Part shown: positions 3,476 through 61,194 of the stretch, in pieces | Numbering within the stretch: the first letter of the stretch is position 1 | Layout: the number at the start of each line of letters is the position of its first letter | IMG/VR virus record: IMGVR_UViG_3300044719_000028 | Location: 1-64,000 of that record | Strand: one strand, 5' to 3' | From: a virus | Taxonomy: Duplodnaviria > Caudoviricetes | DNA length: 64,000 bases | Made by a program: the position numbers and the translations under genes | The notes under the pieces: generated by a model | Database searches by the model: none | Told to the model about the DNA's origin: nothing | Seen by the model: only the letters and a program-made list of their open reading frames with translations

Positions 3476-3639
3476 TTGATATTGACCAGTTAATAGAGAT
3501 TGTACGAGACTCTACACAATGGAGAACTGTACTTGCACCACATCAGAACTGGAGTGATGAATACTCAGAGATTGATATAACGTATGTAGATGCAGACAAG
3601 TTGTTAGAAGGGTTGCACAATCTGAAGGATACAAAATAA
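3469..3639 (+). CDS. hypothetical protein (56 aa)
   Basis: Hand-translated MLIDIDQLIEIVRDS... Confidence 0.6.
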   Translation: MLIDIDQLIEIVRDSTQWRTVLAPHQNWSDEYSEIDITYVDADKLLEGLHNLKDTK

Positions 3640-3653
3640 TTTGCTTAACATGC

Positions 3654-3683
3654 TTGACAAGCCCCTCTTGCGTGGTCTACTAT
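3654..3683 (+). promoter_or_regulatory. sigma70-like early promoter
   Basis: gcTTGACA-18-TACTAT, then A/C-rich leader and GGAGAACATCATG. Confidence 0.65.
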
Positions 3684-3720
3684 ACACACATGGCAGGACA
3701 AACAACCACAGGAGAACATC

Positions 3721-3936
3721 ATGTTGAAAGCAAACCCGAAAGCCCCTACCGTCGCACATACACACTACCAGATTGGCACGTATCAAAGCGGGTTCCGTCT
3801 GTTCATGTTCACTAAGCCCGGTATCAATCTGTTGGACCAATACATTGCGGCAGTGTGCGAGGATATCGAACCGTTGCGCATGATTGCTGAAAAATTGCAG
3901 CTTGAGTATAGCGGCTGGCCGCATGCTAATTGCTAA
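3721..3936 (+). CDS. hypothetical protein (71 aa)
   Basis: AGGAG RBS behind its own promoter. Confidence 0.7.
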   Translation: MLKANPKAPTVAHTHYQIGTYQSGFRLFMFTKPGINLLDQYIAAVCEDIEPLRMIAEKLQLEYSGWPHANC

Positions 3937-3946
3937 AGGATTGGTA

Positions 3947-4174
3947 ATGTCTAATCCCAATCGTACGGCTTACATGGCACAAAAGCCTCGTAAACTGGTT
4001 GCGACAAACGAACAAATGTTTTCAACCCGCACGGAGGCTAACAGTGAAGCTGAAAAGCGGAAAGCACAAGGGGAGACAAACGTACGTGTAACTGCGCTCA
4101 CAACAGGGCCACGTACAAAGCCTGTAAGACGCTATATCGTGCGGACATATGTTTCTATAGGGGAGGTGAAATAA
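3947..4174 (+). CDS. basic hypothetical protein (75 aa)
   Basis: AAGGA RBS, MSNPNRTAYM... Confidence 0.6.
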   Translation: MSNPNRTAYMAQKPRKLVATNEQMFSTRTEANSEAEKRKAQGETNVRVTALTTGPRTKPVRRYIVRTYVSIGEVK

Positions 4175-4299
4175 TGACTAACGAAGCACTCCAAAAGGCA
4201 CAGAAAGCCATGCAGAGGGCGCTTAAGAAGTATGGTGCCAATTCTCCGCAATTTCAGGCTGCACAGCGTAAGTGGGTGGCGCTGAAGGAAAGAGCTTGA
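4174..4299 (+). CDS. small basic helical protein (41 aa)
   Basis: GGAGG RBS, MTNEALQKAQKAMQRALKKYG...; followed by a terminator. Confidence 0.6.
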   Translation: MTNEALQKAQKAMQRALKKYGANSPQFQAAQRKWVALKERA

Positions 4300-4330
4300 C
4301 AGCAATCGTCCGTCAGGACAATTCCAGACA

Positions 4331-4352
4331 AGGGCGCACAAGCGCCTTTTGT
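4331..4352 (+). terminator. intrinsic terminator
   Basis: AAGGGCGC-ACAA-GCGCCTTTT followed by T-rich run. Confidence 0.7.
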
Positions 4353-4367
4353 TGTGTGTTATGGTTG

Positions 4368-4764
4368 CACATCTGCTGGATGCAATCAATTGCCTCTCAG
4401 GGATGCATTTATGTTGTCTCTTGTATTCGCTTTGCTCTTGCACCAAACAAATTTAATCTTACTCGCATGCGCTCGCGCTTAAAGGCATTGCACCTAACAA
4501 TCATATGATGTACAATGATCTTATCTATTCGTTCCACTGCGCAGGCGAAGCCGTAGCAGAGGGACAGAGAGTAAGTAAGAATCTTAGTCTTTAAGAACGT
4601 TCTTCTATTAAAGTCTATTCTTTTATCTCTTCCTATATATCTATTAGTACGGTCTCACAGAGGCAATTAATTGCATCACTGAGAGGCATATCAACATCTG
4701 TGAGATGCATTTGTTGATCTAGAAGATGCATTTCATCCTGTGTATATTGCCTCTCACAGAGGCA
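4368..4764. repeat. iteron/operator-like array of 17-bp sites TGC(A/C)TC-N5-GA(T/G)GCA; putative replication origin
   Basis: Copies at 4368, 4390, 4649, 4672, 4693, 4714, 4748, flanking an AT-rich tract at about 4571-4648. Confidence 0.7.
4488..4516 (+). promoter_or_regulatory. sigma70-like promoter firing into the AT-rich tract (no ORF downstream)
   Basis: TTGCAC-17-TACAAT. Confidence 0.5.
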
Positions 4765-4771
4765 TTTAAAC

Positions 4772-4800
4772 TTGACAGTATCAGTTGCTCGTGGTACATT
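4772..4800 (+). promoter_or_regulatory. promoter of the CopG-like/Rep-like operon
   Basis: TTGACA-17-TACATT with TGn extension; 7 bp downstream of the last repeat. Confidence 0.7.
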
Positions 4801-4827
4801 ATAAGAGTAGCAACCAAAGGAATTATC

Positions 4828-5028
4828 ATGAAACTTGATCTTAACATTGATCTTATCCGATGGATCGATGCTAACAAAGCTGGCATGTCTAGACCGGCAT
4901 TCATCATCCAAAAGTTAAGAGAACTAATGCAAGACACGAAGCCGAACGGCGATATCCATACGAAAGGACAACAAAATGACGAAGTACATCTCCCCGATGG
5001 AGTTAACCACACTCCTAAACAGGTCTAA
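4828..5028 (+). CDS. ribbon-helix-helix (CopG/Arc-like) DNA-binding protein (66 aa)
   Basis: Beta strand MKLDLN, helix IDLIRWIDAN, turn AGMS, helix RPAFIIQKLRELM; start trimmed to the RBS-preceded ATG. Confidence 0.6.
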   Translation: MKLDLNIDLIRWIDANKAGMSRPAFIIQKLRELMQDTKPNGDIHTKGQQNDEVHLPDGVNHTPKQV

Positions 5029-5596
5029 AGATTCTGTTCTCAATCTCACAGTTTACGAATTCCGTTTTCTGTCGTTCCTACTGGCTCGCGTCAACAAGGA
5101 TAAGCTATCCACTCACGGATACCTTGCTTGGCCCGGTACAGACCAAATCATAGAATTTACAGGGTTATCCAAGCCAACAATCGAACGCTCGCGCAAGACT
5201 CTTGTTAGTGCGGGGTGGATGCAGTACACGCCGGGGCATGGTGCAGGTTCTAGCAATCATTACTATATCAATGCGTCTAAGATCATTAGTGCATACGTGG
5301 CATCAGGGTATGATGCACCAGATAAAGAGATTTATGCAACTGTTGTGCAAGAGAAAGCAAAGAAGCAACACAAACGCAACACTGATAATCTTGTGCAGAA
5401 CAAGAAAGCCAAACAAGAAGAGAAATCACCTGAGCCAGTGCAAGATGAGCCTAAAACCAATCCTGACGGTTCTCCCAAGTGGTTTAAGAACGGGACACGT
5501 CGATACACATGGGATGACGTTATGATGCCCCCTAAGCCCGTTAATGCGGCCCCAAGCGCATCGACATATTATGAAGACCTAGAAGCACCGTTCTAG
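4976..5596 (+). CDS. winged-HTH replication initiator-like protein (206 aa)
   Basis: AWPGTDQIIEFTGLSKPTIERSRKTLVSAGW...SSNHYYIN resembles HTH_36-type phage/plasmid initiators; acidic C-terminus EDLEAPF. Confidence 0.75.
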   Translation: MTKYISPMELTTLLNRSKDSVLNLTVYEFRFLSFLLARVNKDKLSTHGYLAWPGTDQIIEFTGLSKPTIERSRKTLVSAGWMQYTPGHGAGSSNHYYINASKIISAYVASGYDAPDKEIYATVVQEKAKKQHKRNTDNLVQNKKAKQEEKSPEPVQDEPKTNPDGSPKWFKNGTRRYTWDDVMMPPKPVNAAPSASTYYEDLEAPF

Positions 5597-5601
5597 CATA
5601 C

Positions 5602-5622
5602 GCCGCCTCCGGGCGGCTTTTC
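5602..5622 (+). terminator. intrinsic terminator
   Basis: GCCGCC-TCCG-GGCGGC-TTTTCT. Confidence 0.75.
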
Positions 5623-5665
5623 TATTTGTCGCCTAACAAACACAAAAATAAACAAGAATTCAAGC

Positions 5666-5694
5666 TTGACACTGACAGATAGCACAAGTAACAT
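5666..5694 (+). promoter_or_regulatory. sigma70-like early promoter
   Basis: gcTTGACA-17-TAACAT. Confidence 0.65.
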
Positions 5695-5730
5695 AAGCAC
5701 ATGTTCAACAAATCACTAACGGAGCCTACC

Positions 5731-5961
5731 ATGTACCAAACCATGCTCAAGAATCAACGTGTAACGTTCGTCTCTGATGTCATCCAAGCTATCAACCATA
5801 GCCCGTTCTATCACTGGTATAACGAAAAGAGCAATCGTTATGTAGTTAGCAACAAGGATAACAAAATGACTGTTGCCGCAGGACTCACCAAAGAAGAGGC
5901 GGAAGCTTGTGTAATGTTTAAAGCTAATCAGCATATCTACAACCGAGTGCAGAAAGGATAA
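5731..5961 (+). CDS. hypothetical protein (76 aa)
   Basis: GGAG RBS behind promoter. Confidence 0.65.
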   Translation: MYQTMLKNQRVTFVSDVIQAINHSPFYHWYNEKSNRYVVSNKDNKMTVAAGLTKEEAEACVMFKANQHIYNRVQKG

Positions 5962-5965
5962 CATC

Positions 5966-6064
5966 ATGTGCAACAAATGCTCTAAGTGTGGGAAAGTGTT
6001 GCCAATCTTACGGTATGAGGGATTGTGCGAAGGATTGCCGGAATATGTTGTAAATGGCTATTGA
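5966..6064 (+). CDS. tiny Cys-rich protein (32 aa)
   Basis: Hand-translated MCNKCSKCGKVLP...; AGGA-ACATCATG start context. Confidence 0.4.
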   Translation: MCNKCSKCGKVLPILRYEGLCEGLPEYVVNGY

Positions 6065-6082
6065 GAATTTTACTTAAAGTGC

Positions 6083-6111
6083 TTGCATTCTTAAACGAGT
6101 GCAGGCATACT
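6083..6111 (+). promoter_or_regulatory. sigma70-like early promoter
   Basis: gtgcTTGCAT-17-CATACT. Confidence 0.55.
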
Positions 6112-6147
6112 AAACACATCTGAACAACACATCTACAGGCTAACATC

Positions 6148-6294
6148 ATGAACATCAAAGACAAAATCATTCGCACTGTGCAAATCGTTGCTAGTGTTGT
6201 TGTAGTGGGGATTCCAGCCGATCTTATGATTCGTGGTGTTGATAGCTTCATGGGACAGTTTGTGATTAATGCAATGCTTGGTAAACTCTTCTGA
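6148..6294 (+). CDS. small membrane protein (48 aa)
   Basis: Hand-translated MNIKDKIIRTVQIVASVVVVGIPADL...; hydrophobic. Confidence 0.55.
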   Translation: MNIKDKIIRTVQIVASVVVVGIPADLMIRGVDSFMGQFVINAMLGKLF

Positions 6295-6303
6295 GGAAAC
6301 ATC

Positions 6304-6537
6304 ATGCTCATCACTCGTGCAATCCTCTCTTTCCTCCTTATGGCTGGCTTTGTAGGCTACATCGTCGTAGATCAACAGCAAACACAAGAACGTGTTGCAA
6401 AGCGTGAAGCTGAGCATGCTAAATATCGTGCTTATGAATTGTGCAAGATGTATTTCATCAATGCTGAAACGACGAAGCAATATGGCTTGGAAGTGGGGAT
6501 GGAAGCTAACAAGCATTGTGTGGATAGGCTGAACTAA
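6304..6537 (+). CDS. membrane-anchored protein (77 aa)
   Basis: N-terminal TM segment AILSFLLMAGFVGYIVV. Confidence 0.65.
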   Translation: MLITRAILSFLLMAGFVGYIVVDQQQTQERVAKREAEHAKYRAYELCKMYFINAETTKQYGLEVGMEANKHCVDRLN

Positions 6538-11976: not shown

Positions 11977-12642
11977 TTAATTCCACCTAGAAATCACCCT
12001 GCAAATGCTTGCTGCACTCCAATCGCCACCTCGTGCAGTAGGAATGTTCAGAGCATTCATTTCTTTAGCGATTTCCCCATACGTCATCCCACAATTCTTC
12101 ATGCGCTCGATTGGTGGACGCACATGAGCGGCAAACCTGTCAGCTTTCTCTTTGATGACAGCCGTTGCCTTCTCACGGGCTTCATTCAGGTTCGTCCGAT
12201 TGCCAAGAATGACACCACGAGCCTTAGCAGCAGCCAACCCTGCTTTGGTTCGCATCCCAATCATCTTGCGCTCTTTCTCAGCAAGCCCTGCAAAGATTGT
12301 CCCAACAAACTCGTCGTGCTCTTGTCCAAGATCGATTGCAACAACCAGCTTCTTTTTCTGGATCAGTTCACGCGAGATGTCGAAGTCACGGCTGCAACGA
12401 TCACTCTTCGTCACAACCACTTGAGCCTTCATTTTCTTCGCCATAGTCAGCGCCATAGACATGACAGGGCGATCTTTCAAAGGAGTGCTGCCAGAGATAA
12501 CCTCGTCCATCACAGTGATGAGATTGTAGTTGTTCCGCTGCGCCCACAGTTCGATTTCTGCACGCTGAGATTCAAGGCCGTTCTTCGACTGACCTTGTTC
12601 GCGGGTAGAGACCCGGCACACTCCAATGAAAGACTTTTTCAT
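11977..12642 (-). CDS. serine recombinase (resolvase/invertase family, 221 aa)
   Basis: RVST nucleophile motif, DRCSR motif, helix AEKERKMIGMRTKAGLAAAKARG, C-terminal EIAKEMNALNIPTARGGDWS DNA-binding domain. Confidence 0.92.
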   Translation of the reverse strand: MKKSFIGVCRVSTREQGQSKNGLESQRAEIELWAQRNNYNLITVMDEVISGSTPLKDRPVMSMALTMAKKMKAQVVVTKSDRCSRDFDISRELIQKKKLVVAIDLGQEHDEFVGTIFAGLAEKERKMIGMRTKAGLAAAKARGVILGNRTNLNEAREKATAVIKEKADRFAAHVRPPIERMKNCGMTYGEIAKEMNALNIPTARGGDWSAASICRVISRWN

Positions 12643-12720
12643 GATTGCTCCTTGAGACGTTTAGATGAAACACCTGATGGCGTTTAGATTGCTCAATAAT
12701 AGGTAAATAAAACCAAGTTG

Positions 12721-13341
12721 TCAACCTATTTTCAGAATATTTTCAATTACATCAACAGACCAGAAGCCATCTAGAGTTTCCATACGAATGTTTTCCATGT
12801 TGGTGACTACTTCCTCCATAGTGAGCCCATATTTCAGAAGGTTCTCAATCATAGGCTTTTTGTTTTGAGCAAATCTTTTTCTTCCCTCTTCACTCACCCT
12901 AACAACGTCTATTCCTTCGAATTCGCACCGCACACGATTGTTCTCTTGAGCTAGGATAGCAGACATACTGACGTGTAAATGATCTGCTCTCATGCCGTGC
13001 TTTGCGGAAATGAATCGTATTGTTTTGTCGGTATTCAACTCGTACACCAAAGCTGCGTACTCTGTTAATCTGTCTACATCTGACACTAACAATACACATC
13101 TTTTCTGGTTCTTACAATCTTGGAGTGCTTGCTGTAGAACAGGTCTGCTGTAAGGTTCTAGCGACCCGGCCGCAGTCTCTCTTGCTGCACCTATAACAGA
13201 TAGTCCGTTCATATCTGCGAATGCGAACATCCTTTCTTCTTGAACTTCAAAGCTCAACTCGTCCTGCCAGTAAGGCGAAACCCTGCTGTACATGATTACA
13301 TTCTTAATTTTAGATATTTGTTTCTCAAGAGGATGTTCCAT
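12721..13341 (-). CDS. divergent serine recombinase paralogue, probably inactive (206 aa)
   Basis: YSRVS and SRPVLQQAL present; DRLxR replaced by DRLTE; helix E shortened. Confidence 0.75.
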   Translation of the reverse strand: MEHPLEKQISKIKNVIMYSRVSPYWQDELSFEVQEERMFAFADMNGLSVIGAARETAAGSLEPYSRPVLQQALQDCKNQKRCVLLVSDVDRLTEYAALVYELNTDKTIRFISAKHGMRADHLHVSMSAILAQENNRVRCEFEGIDVVRVSEEGRKRFAQNKKPMIENLLKYGLTMEEVVTNMENIRMETLDGFWSVDVIENILKIG

Positions 13342-57946: not shown

Positions 57947-58143
57947 GCTTTCTCCTTGTGTTGTTGAATCGCACATCCTTTGACGTGCTCGTAAGCTTGT
58001 TGCAGGGCGTTGATGAGTTGAGGAATATCCGATGGATTGAACGCTGTTGTGTACCAGTAAGTGTCTCTCACAACAATTTCACCGTGCACATCTTTGACGA
58101 TAACGTATTCACCGTCATGTCCTTTAAATTCAATATTCATCAC
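57943..58143 (-). CDS. hypothetical protein (66 aa)
   Basis: GGAGG RBS. Confidence 0.65.
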   Translation of the reverse strand: MMNIEFKGHDGEYVIVKDVHGEIVVRDTYWYTTAFNPSDIPQLINALQQAYEHVKGCAIQQHKEKA

Positions 58144-58673
58144 ACCTCCTTTAAGATGTTTGTTAATGCTTCTCTACGTTGAACATCATTTCTACAATCA
58201 TACCCGTTTTGCGTGAGGAGTGCAACCATTTCTGCCCTGTTCTCTTTACGCAACAGACGGATAACTTCTTTCTGTATCTTAGCTTCTTCAAAAGTGATGC
58301 CCAGAGTCTCTGCCAACGTATGTGTAGAGTGACAAGGTTCCTTGCACAGCACTCGCAAATTATCAACTTCGCAGTACAGGTTGTTAGCGAAATTGCCAAT
58401 GTCCTCTACAGATAAGATTGACCCTGCTGCGATTGGAAAATGGTCAACACAAACTTCTTTAAGTTTTTTCCATTCCCGACATATAGCACAGACGTACTCC
58501 CACTTCTGCTGCTTGTTAGGACCACTGTACGGGCGACGAGCAAGTTCCAAGGCTTTGTTGCGAGGAGGCCAGCGGAGGCTCTTAGACCTGAGCGCCGAAC
58601 GAATCCATGCAAGGTATGCTGCCTCCGTCATTGTACCACCGCAGCGGGTAAGTTTGTTATCTTTCTCAGCCAA
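58140..58673 (-). CDS. HNH endonuclease (177 aa)
   Basis: WIRSALRS...CAIC...VDH...NLRVLCKEPCHSTHT. Confidence 0.85.
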   Translation of the reverse strand: MAEKDNKLTRCGGTMTEAAYLAWIRSALRSKSLRWPPRNKALELARRPYSGPNKQQKWEYVCAICREWKKLKEVCVDHFPIAAGSILSVEDIGNFANNLYCEVDNLRVLCKEPCHSTHTLAETLGITFEEAKIQKEVIRLLRKENRAEMVALLTQNGYDCRNDVQRREALTNILKEV

Positions 58674-59538
58674 GTTGCACCCCGATCTTTTGGCACATAC
58701 GGCTAATTTGGCTACAATCGATATTCAATAACTTACCGATAGAAATCGTGGTTTCGCCCTCTAACCTTAACCAAGCCATCAAACGGATTTGAGCATCAGT
58801 TAGTGACCCATTGTAAGGCGTCTCTTCACCACTCAACTTAAGAATTTTACGACCTTCTCGCTTACCAGCAACTGCCTCTTCTACGGTCCAACCGCGTAGC
58901 AACCTGTATTGCAACGTGTTTGACTTTACTTTTAGCAGATCGCCCAATTCTGCGTAGGTGTAGAATTTTCCTTCGTACTCAACATTGCCGACATGATCGA
59001 GACGCCTAATAAAGTCTTTTCTCGGCTCCCACATACAATTGTCAGGACCGTAGGAACCTGCTAAGTCTTTTCTGGTAAGGTTATATCCTTTCGGGCAATC
59101 CCCCATATCTTTGTAGAATTGTGCCAAACCACCCTCTCCACACCACACATCATCAACAGTAGTGTTGTTTGCCTTGGCACGAGTGAACATGTTATAGTAG
59201 ATAGGTTTGATTGGGTGTTTAGTAAGACCGTGTTTCAGCAGCCCACCATCCCCGCCAATGGCCCTATTCCACCCGATGTTCTTCTTGGGGCGAAGGTGTT
59301 TTTCAGCAGACAACACTTCATTTCTGGTTCCTGTAATCAGTGTCTCCACCATTGTGTAGGAAGACGTTAGTAATGCACTTGAAAAAGCATCTGAATAATT
59401 TCCACACTTTGCTGCGCTCAAATGCTGTTCGTATCGCTGTATCACACCAATACCTGTAACTCCTACGTACCCTTGGGAATAGACATCTGAATGCCTAATG
59501 TCGTGAATCCAATAAAGATAATGAAGACGATCACTCAT
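58666..59538 (-). CDS. GIY-YIG plus degenerate HNH homing endonuclease (290 aa)
   Basis: YLYWI..GYVGVT...RYEQH...E...GWN then HGLTKHP...NCMW...LQYRLLRGWTVEEA. Confidence 0.75.
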   Translation of the reverse strand: MSDRLHYLYWIHDIRHSDVYSQGYVGVTGIGVIQRYEQHLSAAKCGNYSDAFSSALLTSSYTMVETLITGTRNEVLSAEKHLRPKKNIGWNRAIGGDGGLLKHGLTKHPIKPIYYNMFTRAKANNTTVDDVWCGEGGLAQFYKDMGDCPKGYNLTRKDLAGSYGPDNCMWEPRKDFIRRLDHVGNVEYEGKFYTYAELGDLLKVKSNTLQYRLLRGWTVEEAVAGKREGRKILKLSGEETPYNGSLTDAQIRLMAWLRLEGETTISIGKLLNIDCSQISRMCQKIGVQLG

Positions 59539-60491
59539 ATCAACCCCCACTCCTCACTAAACTTATACCTCTGCTCAACACTATCGAGCATCTTAAGAAG
59601 CATAACATTCTCATCCATCACTTCAACCCAAGACAAGATTGTCCCATCTTCCAGCTTGTGCCCATCCTTGAACGTCTCTTGATACACCCAAGCAACGCGC
59701 TTGGCAAGTTCCTCTTGTGTCTCGCACCCGACAAGACATTTCGTAGCAGCAACCTCACCGAACCCCTTGCCCTTGCGAATACCGAACTTCTCTCGCACAG
59801 AGTCTACAGCAGTAGGAATGCCAAGAATATTATCGATTGTATCTCCTCGGAGGCTTTGCCAGCAGAGTTGATAGAAGCCGTCAAACTCGTTCGTGTACGT
59901 CGCAGCGTCATCCCACCTCGTAGCGTCAGTGTGCCAGCCCACACACATCTTCAAGTCTTTGTCAGGGCTGCTAATTGCCCTGTCAGAATCTTCGCCAAGA
60001 TGCTTGTGCTCAGCAAGCCAGATAGAGCAAACATCATCACTCTCGATGTTCGTCTGCGGCTGCACTATATAATCTGAAATACGAGCAATCAGCTTTTCCT
60101 TTATAGCGTTGAACAGCAACGGTTTAGCAGGGCGCTGACCCTTGTAGGGCTGAATTCTAGCAATCTTATCACGGAAGTTGCCATGTTTCCCGCCTAGAAC
60201 AAACTTGACACTCTTAACAGGGTTGCTCTCACTGATCTGATACATCCTGCCAAGCAACCCTTCTACAGCGTTGTTAACACTGCCAACAATAGTAGCATTG
60301 TCTTCAATTTCAAACTGCTCAGCTTTCCACTTCGGATTCTCTTTCAGCCAATTCTTAAAGGCTGTACGATTCTCGTATTCTTTCTTGCGACCTGACGCAA
60401 TGTGACGAGCAAAGATTGTGTTCTTTTGTTGTGCAGCAGCAGCAGAAACTAGCGGAGTGTCGAAGTCACAGTATAGATGATACTTTCTCAT
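59535..60491 (-). CDS. 5'-3' exonuclease (T7 gp6-like, 318 aa)
   Basis: CDFD, NFRDKIA..YKGQR, IESDDV, SPDKDL and GDTIDNILG. Confidence 0.88.
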   Translation of the reverse strand: MRKYHLYCDFDTPLVSAAAAQQKNTIFARHIASGRKKEYENRTAFKNWLKENPKWKAEQFEIEDNATIVGSVNNAVEGLLGRMYQISESNPVKSVKFVLGGKHGNFRDKIARIQPYKGQRPAKPLLFNAIKEKLIARISDYIVQPQTNIESDDVCSIWLAEHKHLGEDSDRAISSPDKDLKMCVGWHTDATRWDDAATYTNEFDGFYQLCWQSLRGDTIDNILGIPTAVDSVREKFGIRKGKGFGEVAATKCLVGCETQEELAKRVAWVYQETFKDGHKLEDGTILSWVEVMDENVMLLKMLDSVEQRYKFSEEWGLI

Positions 60492-60561: not shown

Positions 60562-61194
60562 TTAAAATGGGGCTTGTTCATCGTCTTCCATTTCCGGCTC
60601 AGGCTTCTTAGCGGCAGAGCGTGCTGCACGACCTTGCGTCACTTCTTCACGAGCCGCTTCTGCTTTAACCGGCTTAGCATCGCCGAATTCCGATCCTGCT
60701 ACACCACCGCCAGAGGACTTGTACTCAATAAAACCGTCTTCGTCCATAAGAATGTTATTCAGTTGAGCGAACGTACCAAACGAATTCTCAGTGATGCGGT
60801 ACGACACTTTAGCCTTGCTGCCGTTGCTGATGAGTCGACTGGTAGTAATTTCCACACGCTCACCGTCTTTGGTGTCCAGCAGCACGCGAGGGCGGTACTT
60901 CTCATCGTACATCTCGCCATCTTTGGATGCAGGCTTGCGCATTTTAATCACATAAACTTCCTCACCGCCAAACGGAGGTTCCATCTTGAACTTCTGCTGA
61001 AACTCTTCTGCATCGAATTCCTTTGCCTTTTGTTTAGCAAATTGCTTATTAAAAGCTTTGGCAGTAGCCTTATCAACGATACAGTCAACTTCGTACACGA
61101 GGTCTTCAGATTGAAACTTTTTTACCGGCTCCCCAATCTTCGCGTAAGCCAGCACAACATTGTTCAGAACACCGTATTGATTTTTGTCAGCCAT
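60562..61194 (-). CDS. single-stranded DNA-binding protein (T7 gp2.5-like, 210 aa)
   Basis: ISNGSKAKV OB-fold pattern; acidic tail EMEDDEQAPF. Confidence 0.8.
   Translation of the reverse strand: MADKNQYGVLNNVVLAYAKIGEPVKKFQSEDLVYEVDCIVDKATAKAFNKQFAKQKAKEFDAEEFQQKFKMEPPFGGEEVYVIKMRKPASKDGEMYDEKYRPRVLLDTKDGERVEITTSRLISNGSKAKVSYRITENSFGTFAQLNNILMDEDGFIEYKSSGGGVAGSEFGDAKPVKAEAAREEVTQGRAARSAAKKPEPEMEDDEQAPF

Follow-up and report, generated by a model that had tools for sequence, protein, structure and literature searches.

Why does a phage with its own replication enzymes keep, among its early genes, an array of short repeats beside an AT-rich tract and a pair of small overlapping genes? The locus lies at positions 4368 to 5617 of the window, by which we mean the first 64 kb of the virus genome IMGVR_UViG_3300044719_000028 from IMG/VR (88,744 bp, rated complete by CheckV). 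A terminator at 4330-4349 is followed by 470 bp without a convincing open reading frame (ORF), then by two overlapping genes and a second terminator at 5602-5617. Our analysis indicates that this cassette is probably the phage's own replication origin, of a lytic type and built like ori-lambda with unrelated proteins. The initial annotation, made from the letters alone, had described a plasmid-style replicon that serves either as a dedicated origin-binding module for lytic replication or for persistence in a low-copy plasmid state. We favor the first of these, given that the repeats are unique, the adjoining DNA is the most meltable of the genome and the initiator belongs to a replication family.

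The repeats themselves are real. The motif TGCMTC-N5-GAKGCA occurs within 4368-4764 as three perfect copies, three copies with two mismatches and one copy of which only a half is present. Two of the sites lie to the left of the AT tract and five to its right (none has a strand in our feature list). The left sites are 4368-4384 (CACATC-N5-GATGCA, two mismatches) and 4391-4407 (a perfect 6-5-6 dyad; a left dyad is present in relatives too). The right array begins with 4649-4665, where the sequence and a comparison with relatives identify the right half only (GAGGCA, 4660-4665), and continues with sites found, like the left ones, by motif search: 4672-4688 (perfect), 4693-4709 and 4714-4730 (each with two mismatches, both in the left half) and 4748-4764 (perfect). 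This last dyad ends 7 bp upstream of a -35 hexamer and is a candidate autoregulatory operator. Six of the starts first reported stand (4368, 4649, 4672, 4693, 4714 and 4748), with the copy at 4649 reduced to a right half, and the start given as 4390 moves to 4391.

The right half-site and its 3' WTT flank are nearly invariant, and the left half is often degenerate; hence, all sites point the same way and form directional repeats with internal dyad symmetry. In the right array, successive sites start 23, 21, 21 and 34 bp apart and thus all lie on one face of the helix. The near-invariant right half and the central spacing of 23, 21 and 21 bp had both been read from the letters, and the motif positions bear them out. 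How specific is the array to this locus? The exact motif has three occurrences in the 88,744-bp genome, all in the cassette, where about 0.02 are expected by calculation, and the 400 bp from 4351 hold nine half-sites against a genome mean of 0.48, which is the strongest half-site cluster genome-wide. With two mismatches allowed, the 64-kb window contains 14 matches, a count not above that of shuffled sequences (9.7 ± 3.2), and 6 of the 14 lie within 4368-4764.

The DNA next to the right array stands out by its low stability. An AT-rich tract abutting the repeats had been placed at about 4571-4648; it is present beside the array and is best placed at about 4585-4650, where it has 72% AT and, on the plus strand, 65% pyrimidines. 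A 60-bp interval within it reaches the 99.99th percentile of AT content. Positions 4599-4648, a pyrimidine-rich stretch with TCTATT repeats, have the lowest duplex stability of any 50-bp interval in the genome (-52.3 kcal/mol, with the next at -54.8 and a mean of -68.5), and the corresponding AT tract is the least stable stretch in 11 of 14 related loci. On its AT content and duplex stability, we regard 4599-4648 (no strand) as a candidate DNA-unwinding element.

Which protein might act on these sites? The second gene of the cassette (4976-5596, plus strand) encodes a 206-amino-acid initiator-like protein, here called Rep. Profiles and a structure model describe it as a winged helix (approximately residues 1 to 115) followed by a conserved linker motif (HKRNTSGL), a small C-terminal motif and an acidic end (...APF). 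Gene callers choose Met8 (4997) as its start, and the ATG at 4976 carries an AAGGA ribosome-binding site. Rep matches the Pfam family HTH_36 (PF13730) with 32.7 bits (curated cut-off, 25; E = 6.4e-8), as do 18 of the 21 members of the Rep family, with a best E-value of 5e-15. It also matches eight PHROG families, all annotated as replication proteins: initiator, O-like initiator or, in one case, DnaD-like helicase loader. These matches, which include phrog_270, 678, 391, 428, 1032 and 8102, have E-values of 3e-8 to 2e-4 over residues 24 to 162 and thus reach beyond a bare helix-turn-helix (HTH); phrog_270 is matched by 20 of the 21 family members. Across the whole family, 15 PHROG families are matched, 13 of them named as replication or primosomal and two unnamed, with no regulator family among them. 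The AlphaFold2 (AF2) model has a confident winged helix at residues 1 to 115 (predicted local distance difference test [pLDDT] score, >90) and a mostly disordered C-terminal half. Hence, the winged-HTH, initiator-like ORF that had been proposed to overlap the small gene upstream (4828-5028) is upheld by the profile searches, and the structure search adds generic winged-helix neighbors. No other gene of the initiator family was seen among the ORFs scanned in the replication region.

The end of Rep points to replication as well. Its last residues, YYEDLEAPF (5570-5596, plus strand), were identified by alignment and a genome-wide tail search and resemble the C-terminal tail of SSBs (proteins that bind single-stranded DNA). 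The model gives this tail low confidence (pLDDT, ~46 to 57); P205 and F206 are invariant in 21 Reps, and an acidic ...PF end is found in about 50 of the 65 closest cluster representatives (down to an E-value of ~1e-13). Only one other ORF of the genome has an acidic tail that ends in Phe, namely, the gp2.5-like SSB (60562-61194, minus strand; tail search and family match), which ends in EMEDDEQAPF. Exactly two ORFs with such a tail are present in each of the four complete genomes (the window genome, G001, G004 and G005). The ORF other than Rep is the gp2.5-like SSB in the first three and a 350-amino-acid protein of unknown function in G005 (75998-77050, L051:498-1550, minus strand), which matches phrog_2544, has a Lys/Pro-rich linker and ends in DLGDDDAPF. 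This complete genome gave no match to a gp2.5-like SSB and has no tail carrier besides Rep and the 350-residue protein, which is therefore a candidate new SSB-like protein.

The phage has a T7-like replisome that consists of PolA (genome positions 63195-65600, L015:1195-3600, minus strand), a gp4-like primase-helicase (genome positions 67825-69585, strand not stated), both identified by family match, and the gp2.5-like SSB. T7 itself has, to our knowledge, no origin-binding initiator. Its gp2.5 and gp4 carry acidic C-terminal tails ending in Phe, which are docking peptides for replisome partners. The C-terminal peptide of Escherichia coli SSB, DDDIPF, is likewise a docking site for many partners (PMC5872125). 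Unlike in T7 and E. coli SSB, the tail in this phage sits on a predicted sequence-specific origin-binding protein. No description of an initiator with an SSB-type tail was found in the literature searched, and the family-wide conservation of the ...PF tail of Rep is new here. The docking-type peptide that initiator and SSB have in common suggests a route by which the replication machinery might be recruited.

Is the arrangement conserved? The initiator comes from a small family, with 56 of 1.84 billion cluster representatives matching at E ≤ 1e-10. Neither the cassette DNA nor its proteins matched any of 50,697 isolated phages, and a search of viral contigs with the single Rep protein gave no match. 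An alignment-based search of viral contigs yielded 5 loci and a metagenome search 3 more, and our comparison covers 15 related loci whose upstream sequence is complete, plus two from more distant relatives (L052 and L053). All 15 full-upstream relatives have the parts in the same order: one or two left dyads, the TTGCAC(C)NAACAA block, a GC hairpin, an AT-rich hairpin, the pyrimidine/AT tract, TTAGTACGG, the array, the promoter, the RHH (ribbon-helix-helix) gene and rep. In the window and the four relatives nearest to it, the iterons of the array are 23-21/22-21-34 bp apart; in the remaining relatives, the distance is about 22 bp. The sequence of the repeats, in turn, differs by lineage, with at least seven classes of half-site (GAKGCA, CGGGCA, GATGGT, GATGGC, AGCGGGG, CGGTA and GGGGGATAG), and every lineage's half-site is enriched in its own locus only, so that the table of half-sites against loci is block-diagonal. 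The residues that change with the iteron class are at the start of the Rep recognition helix, in the Rep wing and in the RHH strand (residues 2 to 4). Covariation of repeats and Rep in related phages had been suggested as a check, and the answer is positive: repeats and both proteins change together in every relative examined. The two distant members have arrays of their own, four 22-bp direct repeats in the corresponding position in L052 and GCGCT-N3-AGCGC dyads downstream of the gene in L053, and no homologue without repeats was found among those examined.

The cassette also appears as a unit in the exchange of DNA between these phages. In six of the seven relatives compared, DNA similarity to the window is almost confined to 4370-5385, and it begins at 4370 and 4379 in the comparisons with L013 and L014. 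The genome G002 (L032) has a PolA 96% identical to that of the window genome, yet the two Reps share only 46% identity and the iteron class differs. This contrast and the confined similarity indicate that the cassette moves as a unit.

The known system that comes closest is ori-lambda. As read from its record, ori-lambda has the repeat TCCCTC-N5-GAGGGA at start distances of 20, 24 and 23 bp, and an AT tract rich in purines comes next. Both origins therefore have 17-bp iterons that are 6-5-6 dyads in one orientation, 20 to 24 bp apart (here TGCCTC-N5-GAGGCA), and an array that adjoins a strand-asymmetric AT-rich tract; the geometry is the same in mirror orientation, and the half-sites are similar. 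Where ori-lambda calls for at least four dyad iterons about two helical turns apart, the cassette has five right sites and two more upstream. Iteron specificity varies among phages related to lambda, too. Dimers of lambda O bind the iterons via the N-terminal domain, the C-terminal part recruits the helicase, and nearby transcription helps the origin (PMC7466680). There are clear differences. The phage origin would lie upstream of its operon, whereas that of lambda is inside the initiator gene, and it has a second iteron cluster beyond the AT tract and an RHH gene before the initiator. No P-type helicase-loader gene lies downstream, and the phage has a gp4-like primase-helicase instead. Its replisome is T7-like, whereas lambda uses that of the host, and its initiator has the SSB-type tail.

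The first gene of the operon (4828-5028, plus strand) encodes a 66-amino-acid RHH-like protein, described from a model and an alignment, with residues 1 to 36 predicted to be folded and a disordered tail. The model has an extended segment at residues 1 to 6 and helices at 7 to 16 and 22 to 36 (pLDDT, 84 to 92), and S21 and R22, in the turn between the helices, are invariant in the alignment; in RHH repressors, a turn of the G-x-S/T-R type joins the two helices. Six of eight Foldseek matches are RHH proteins, CopG (1ea4) among them, all weak with E > 1. The ORF matched nothing in Pfam, PHROG or NCBIfam, and its profile gave only a chance hit against PDB sequences. Hence, of the CopG-like RHH ORF first proposed, the ORF and a strand-helix-helix model stand, a family assignment does not, and the label CopG-like is plausible on the basis of the model and weakly shown. 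The two genes overlap by 53 nucleotides (4976-5028), and the last 17 codons of the RHH gene are inside rep. This overlap is retained in all loci examined, and selection on the folded N terminus of Rep (MELTTLL) probably accounts, as a side effect, for the conserved C-terminal residues of the RHH protein (NGANHAPEQ-like). A programmed frameshift that fuses the two frames was considered and rejected, since each ORF has its own ATG and ribosome-binding site.

The boundaries and the promoter of the cassette are as the initial annotation gave them. The terminator at 4330-4349 (plus strand; an 8-pair stem, then a T-rich tail) would end the upstream early unit, and that at 5602-5617 (plus strand; terminator scan) would close the cassette on the right. 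The sigma-70 promoter of the two-gene operon, TTGACA-17-TACATT (4772-4800, plus strand), matches the consensus at 10 of 12 positions and has a TG before the -10 hexamer. When we looked by eye for a separate, lineage-variable dyad near the promoter that could be an RHH operator, nothing turned up but GTAGCAA, a leader motif that every lineage retains.

An RHH gene coupled to a replication gene has precedents in plasmids. In copG-repB of pMV158 and orf56-orf904 of pRN1, a small RHH gene lies upstream of, and is coupled to, the gene for the replication protein, with one promoter and a dyad beside the -35 hexamer. In pRN1, the small RHH repressor is cotranscribed with the replication protein (PMC4234260). 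The second proteins differ: RepB is a rolling-circle nuclease and ORF904 a primase-polymerase/helicase, whereas the phage protein is, judging from its sequence, only a winged-helix binder. Unlike the plasmid proteins, the phage RHH ORF matches no Pfam RHH family.

How might the cassette work? We hypothesize that the promoter at 4772 drives the 206-residue winged-helix protein together with the small RHH protein. The initiator, probably a dimer, would bind the same-face 17-bp dyads, five to the right of the AT tract and two about 240 bp to the left, and the resulting nucleoprotein complex would stress and open the adjoining pyrimidine-rich tract at 4599-4648. The disordered C-terminal ...PF peptide of the initiator could then bring in the usual partners of SSB tails, which may be PolA or the gp4-like primase-helicase of the phage, or else SSB-tail-binding proteins of the host. 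Binding of the RHH protein, the initiator dimer or both to the perfect dyad at 4748-4764 would autoregulate the operon. A promoter-like element, TTGCAC-17-TACAAT (4489-4517, plus strand; found by eye and not listed by the promoter/terminator scan), is directed into the AT tract and could contribute a primer or activate the origin by transcription, in the manner of the primary origin of T7. The phage resembles T7 in its type of replisome and would also do so in a promoter-like element that fires into an AT-rich tract.

Several observations weigh against an origin or against parts of this mechanism. The PHROG names are annotations rather than tested functions. No characterized homologue of Rep was found in the searches, and the Rep profile matched no PDB sequence, i.e., there is no solved relative. 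With lambda O, alignment of the family profile by hhalign gave a probability of 0.14, and there was no match to Phage_rep_O. GC skew is dominated by gene orientation and gives no independent origin signal. Conservation of the promoter-like element at 4489-4517 is incomplete: in L014 it is strong, with TATAAT, and L004, L005 and L007 have a weak version or none. PolA and the primase-helicase are not conserved across all cassette-carrying phages; since PolA is not kept in all of them, this PolA cannot simply be what the tail docks on. Finally, because both proteins change with the iteron class, covariation singles out neither Rep nor the RHH protein as the reader of the dyads. L006 and L019 have the iteron class and the RHH strand of L023 and a different Rep helix, a pattern in the sequences that would fit the RHH protein as the reader slightly better. 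In phage P22, the RHH protein Mnt binds an operator of 17 bp as a tetramer.

The fold of Rep is a further point of this kind. The Foldseek and VIA neighbors of the model include the N-domain of the staphylococcal plasmid initiator RepA, the N-domain of DnaD, MarR- and ArsR-type regulators, and TubR. The winged helix of the model is thus generic, with MarR, ArsR and TubR scoring as well as replication initiators, and because initiators and regulators are tied in the structure search, the fold leaves the function undecided. RepA_N initiators of staphylococcal multiresistance plasmids (PDB 4pql, 4pt7, 4pta and 5kbj) and DnaD have a similarly extended winged-helix N-domain (Z, 7.0 to 7.7), and the N-domain of RepA_N proteins binds iterons as a dimer. 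Rep scores no better with them than with the MarR and ArsR regulators, though, and has no sequence match to them.

Could the locus then be a transcriptional control region only, in which the RHH and winged-helix proteins are MarR-like repressors or activators that, through an operator array, autoregulate their operon or set the timing of early genes and have no role in replication? Phage operators, too, can take the form of 17-base dyads 21 to 24 bp apart, and the last dyad of the array is next to the -35 hexamer. However, no copy of the site occurs at any other promoter in 88.7 kb, so that only the operon itself could be regulated, and seven sites flanking the most meltable DNA of the genome exceed the needs of autoregulation. 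MarR and ArsR regulators are among the best structure matches of Rep, and the Joint Genome Institute (JGI) annotation names some of its homologues MarR-family regulators; against this, all named PHROG families matched by the Rep family are replication or primosomal families. RHH proteins are typically repressors, but the conserved disordered C terminus of Rep with its SSB-type tail would have no role in a plain repressor. On balance, we consider pure transcriptional control unlikely.

Still less probable is a maintenance replicon with which the phage would persist as a low-copy plasmid or in a carrier state. Repeats, an AT tract and an autoregulated rep operon would also fit plasmid replicons, and the initial annotation had compared the layout to those of P1, F and RK2. 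The cassette is like the iteron plasmids (pPS10, F, P1, R6K and RK2) in its repeats about two helical turns apart beside an AT-rich element and, presumably, in the autoregulation of rep. Its mix of full dyads and half-only sites also recalls their binding as dimers at the operator and as monomers at the iterons. Unlike in these plasmids, the model of Rep has one winged helix rather than two, the Pfam profile search gave no Rep_3 match, and the DnaA box TTWTNCACA is absent from 4300-4850. We therefore see ori-lambda as the closest layout. Relatives on plasmids are missing too: tblastn against 72,556 plasmids gave only one marginal 52-residue HTH match, and a search of reference genomes (one for each of 185,579 species) gave only a spurious 15-residue match. 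Partition genes, which plasmid prophages of the P1 or N15 type have, are missing as far as the search for AAA_31 ParA and tubulin/TubZ goes (it did not cover other families of ParA or ParM), and there is no gene for a tyrosine integrase, which leaves a plasmid state unsupported. Two serine recombinase genes lie 7 kb away, and the distant homologue in L053 is located between recombinase genes, which would suit a persisting element; however, the genome looks virulent, with a T7-type replisome, ribonucleotide reductase, thymidylate synthase and many HNH endonucleases, and the cassette lies among early genes behind a strong constitutive-type promoter. The recombinase-like genes of the window are adjacent (11977-13341, minus strand), and their NCBIfam matches are weak, far below the cut-offs; the analysis gave nothing that ties them to a plasmid state.

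A centromere, partition site or other DNA-organizing site (for example, for packaging), bound by the RHH or a TubR-like protein, is very improbable, for although TubR ranks high among the Foldseek matches to the winged helix and the RHH proteins ParG, omega and ParR bind repeat arrays, no partner NTPase (ParA or TubZ) was found, the PHROG matches of Rep are replication families, and centromeres have neither an AT-rich unwinding element nor an SSB-type tail.

If the cassette is a lytic origin, as we propose, what is special about it? Tentatively, and short of thinking it probable, we suggest that Rep represents an undescribed family of phage initiators (HTH_36 winged helix, disordered linker and acidic ...PF end) that would pose as an SSB beside the unwinding element and load SSB-docking proteins without a helicase loader. 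The cassette would be swapped as a unit between near-identical phages, and its DNA specificity would have been reset at least seven times on a fixed geometry. If true, resetting the specificity could let co-infecting relatives keep private origins. The SSB-type tail on an initiator provides a concrete hypothesis for replisome recruitment without a helicase loader. Little is known about origins in virulent phages that have T7-type replisomes, and the cassette offers a compact, bounded and testable candidate origin of about 1.25 kb for an uncultivated clade of phages with genomes of 80 to 94 kb. The at least seven matched sets of repeats, RHH and winged-helix proteins on one geometry should be useful for deriving rules of DNA recognition and for building orthogonal replicons. 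Proteins of the Rep family annotated as MarR regulator or hypothetical would be better labeled candidate replication initiators.

The region upstream of the operon contains further conserved elements. Two copies of TTGCAC(C)NAACAA, 50 bp apart (4438 and 4488), and a TCTTACTCG block occupy 4438-4500 (plus strand), and the TTAGTACGG block lies at the boundary of the AT tract and the iterons (4644-4652, plus strand). All are unique in the genome and conserved across lineages, and their retention whatever the iteron class suggests that they are candidate sites for a conserved host or phage factor. Between them, a conserved stem-loop at 4531-4561 (plus strand; folding and comparison of loci) contains a GGC-GAA-GCC mini-hairpin (4544-4552). 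Of 16 loci, 15 have a GC mini-hairpin whose loop is of the G..A kind, in five versions of the stem (the lineage stems are GCC/GGC, GGCC/GGCC, CTGC/GCAG and GTGC/GCAC), where we estimate about 0.05 per locus by chance. Its distance upstream of the AT tract is 80 to 150 bp in 14 of the 16 and 194 bp in the fifteenth, L009, and it could be a priming or loading signal in single-stranded DNA or an element in an RNA.

An AT-rich hairpin followed by a T-run (4585-4617, plus strand) is conserved in position, with a lineage-specific sequence, and is possibly the terminator of a transcript of roughly 100 nucleotides. The promoter-like element, the two stem-loops and the T-run inside the AT tract would together delimit such a transcript (4489-4632, plus strand). 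The single-sequence RNA fold of the stem-loop region has a z-score of -3.0, and the hairpins keep their place with differing sequences among relatives. For the conserved central block, the consensus fold from RNAalifold is weak (-2.6 kcal/mol), and an Rfam scan of 3500-6500 gave no match. The idea of a small structured RNA, which rests on single-sequence folds and hairpins kept in position, is not established.

Outside the cassette, the ORF downstream (76 amino acids) has no Pfam or PHROG family match. Three other cassette carriers gave no PolA match and one no primase-helicase match, and the replication modules of these phages are strongly mosaic. In the window genome, three HNH endonuclease genes, one with an AP2 domain, lie among the genes for SSB, exonuclease and PolA (58140-59550, minus strand, and L015:3584-4342, minus strand), an interspersion among replication genes that is typical of homing endonucleases.

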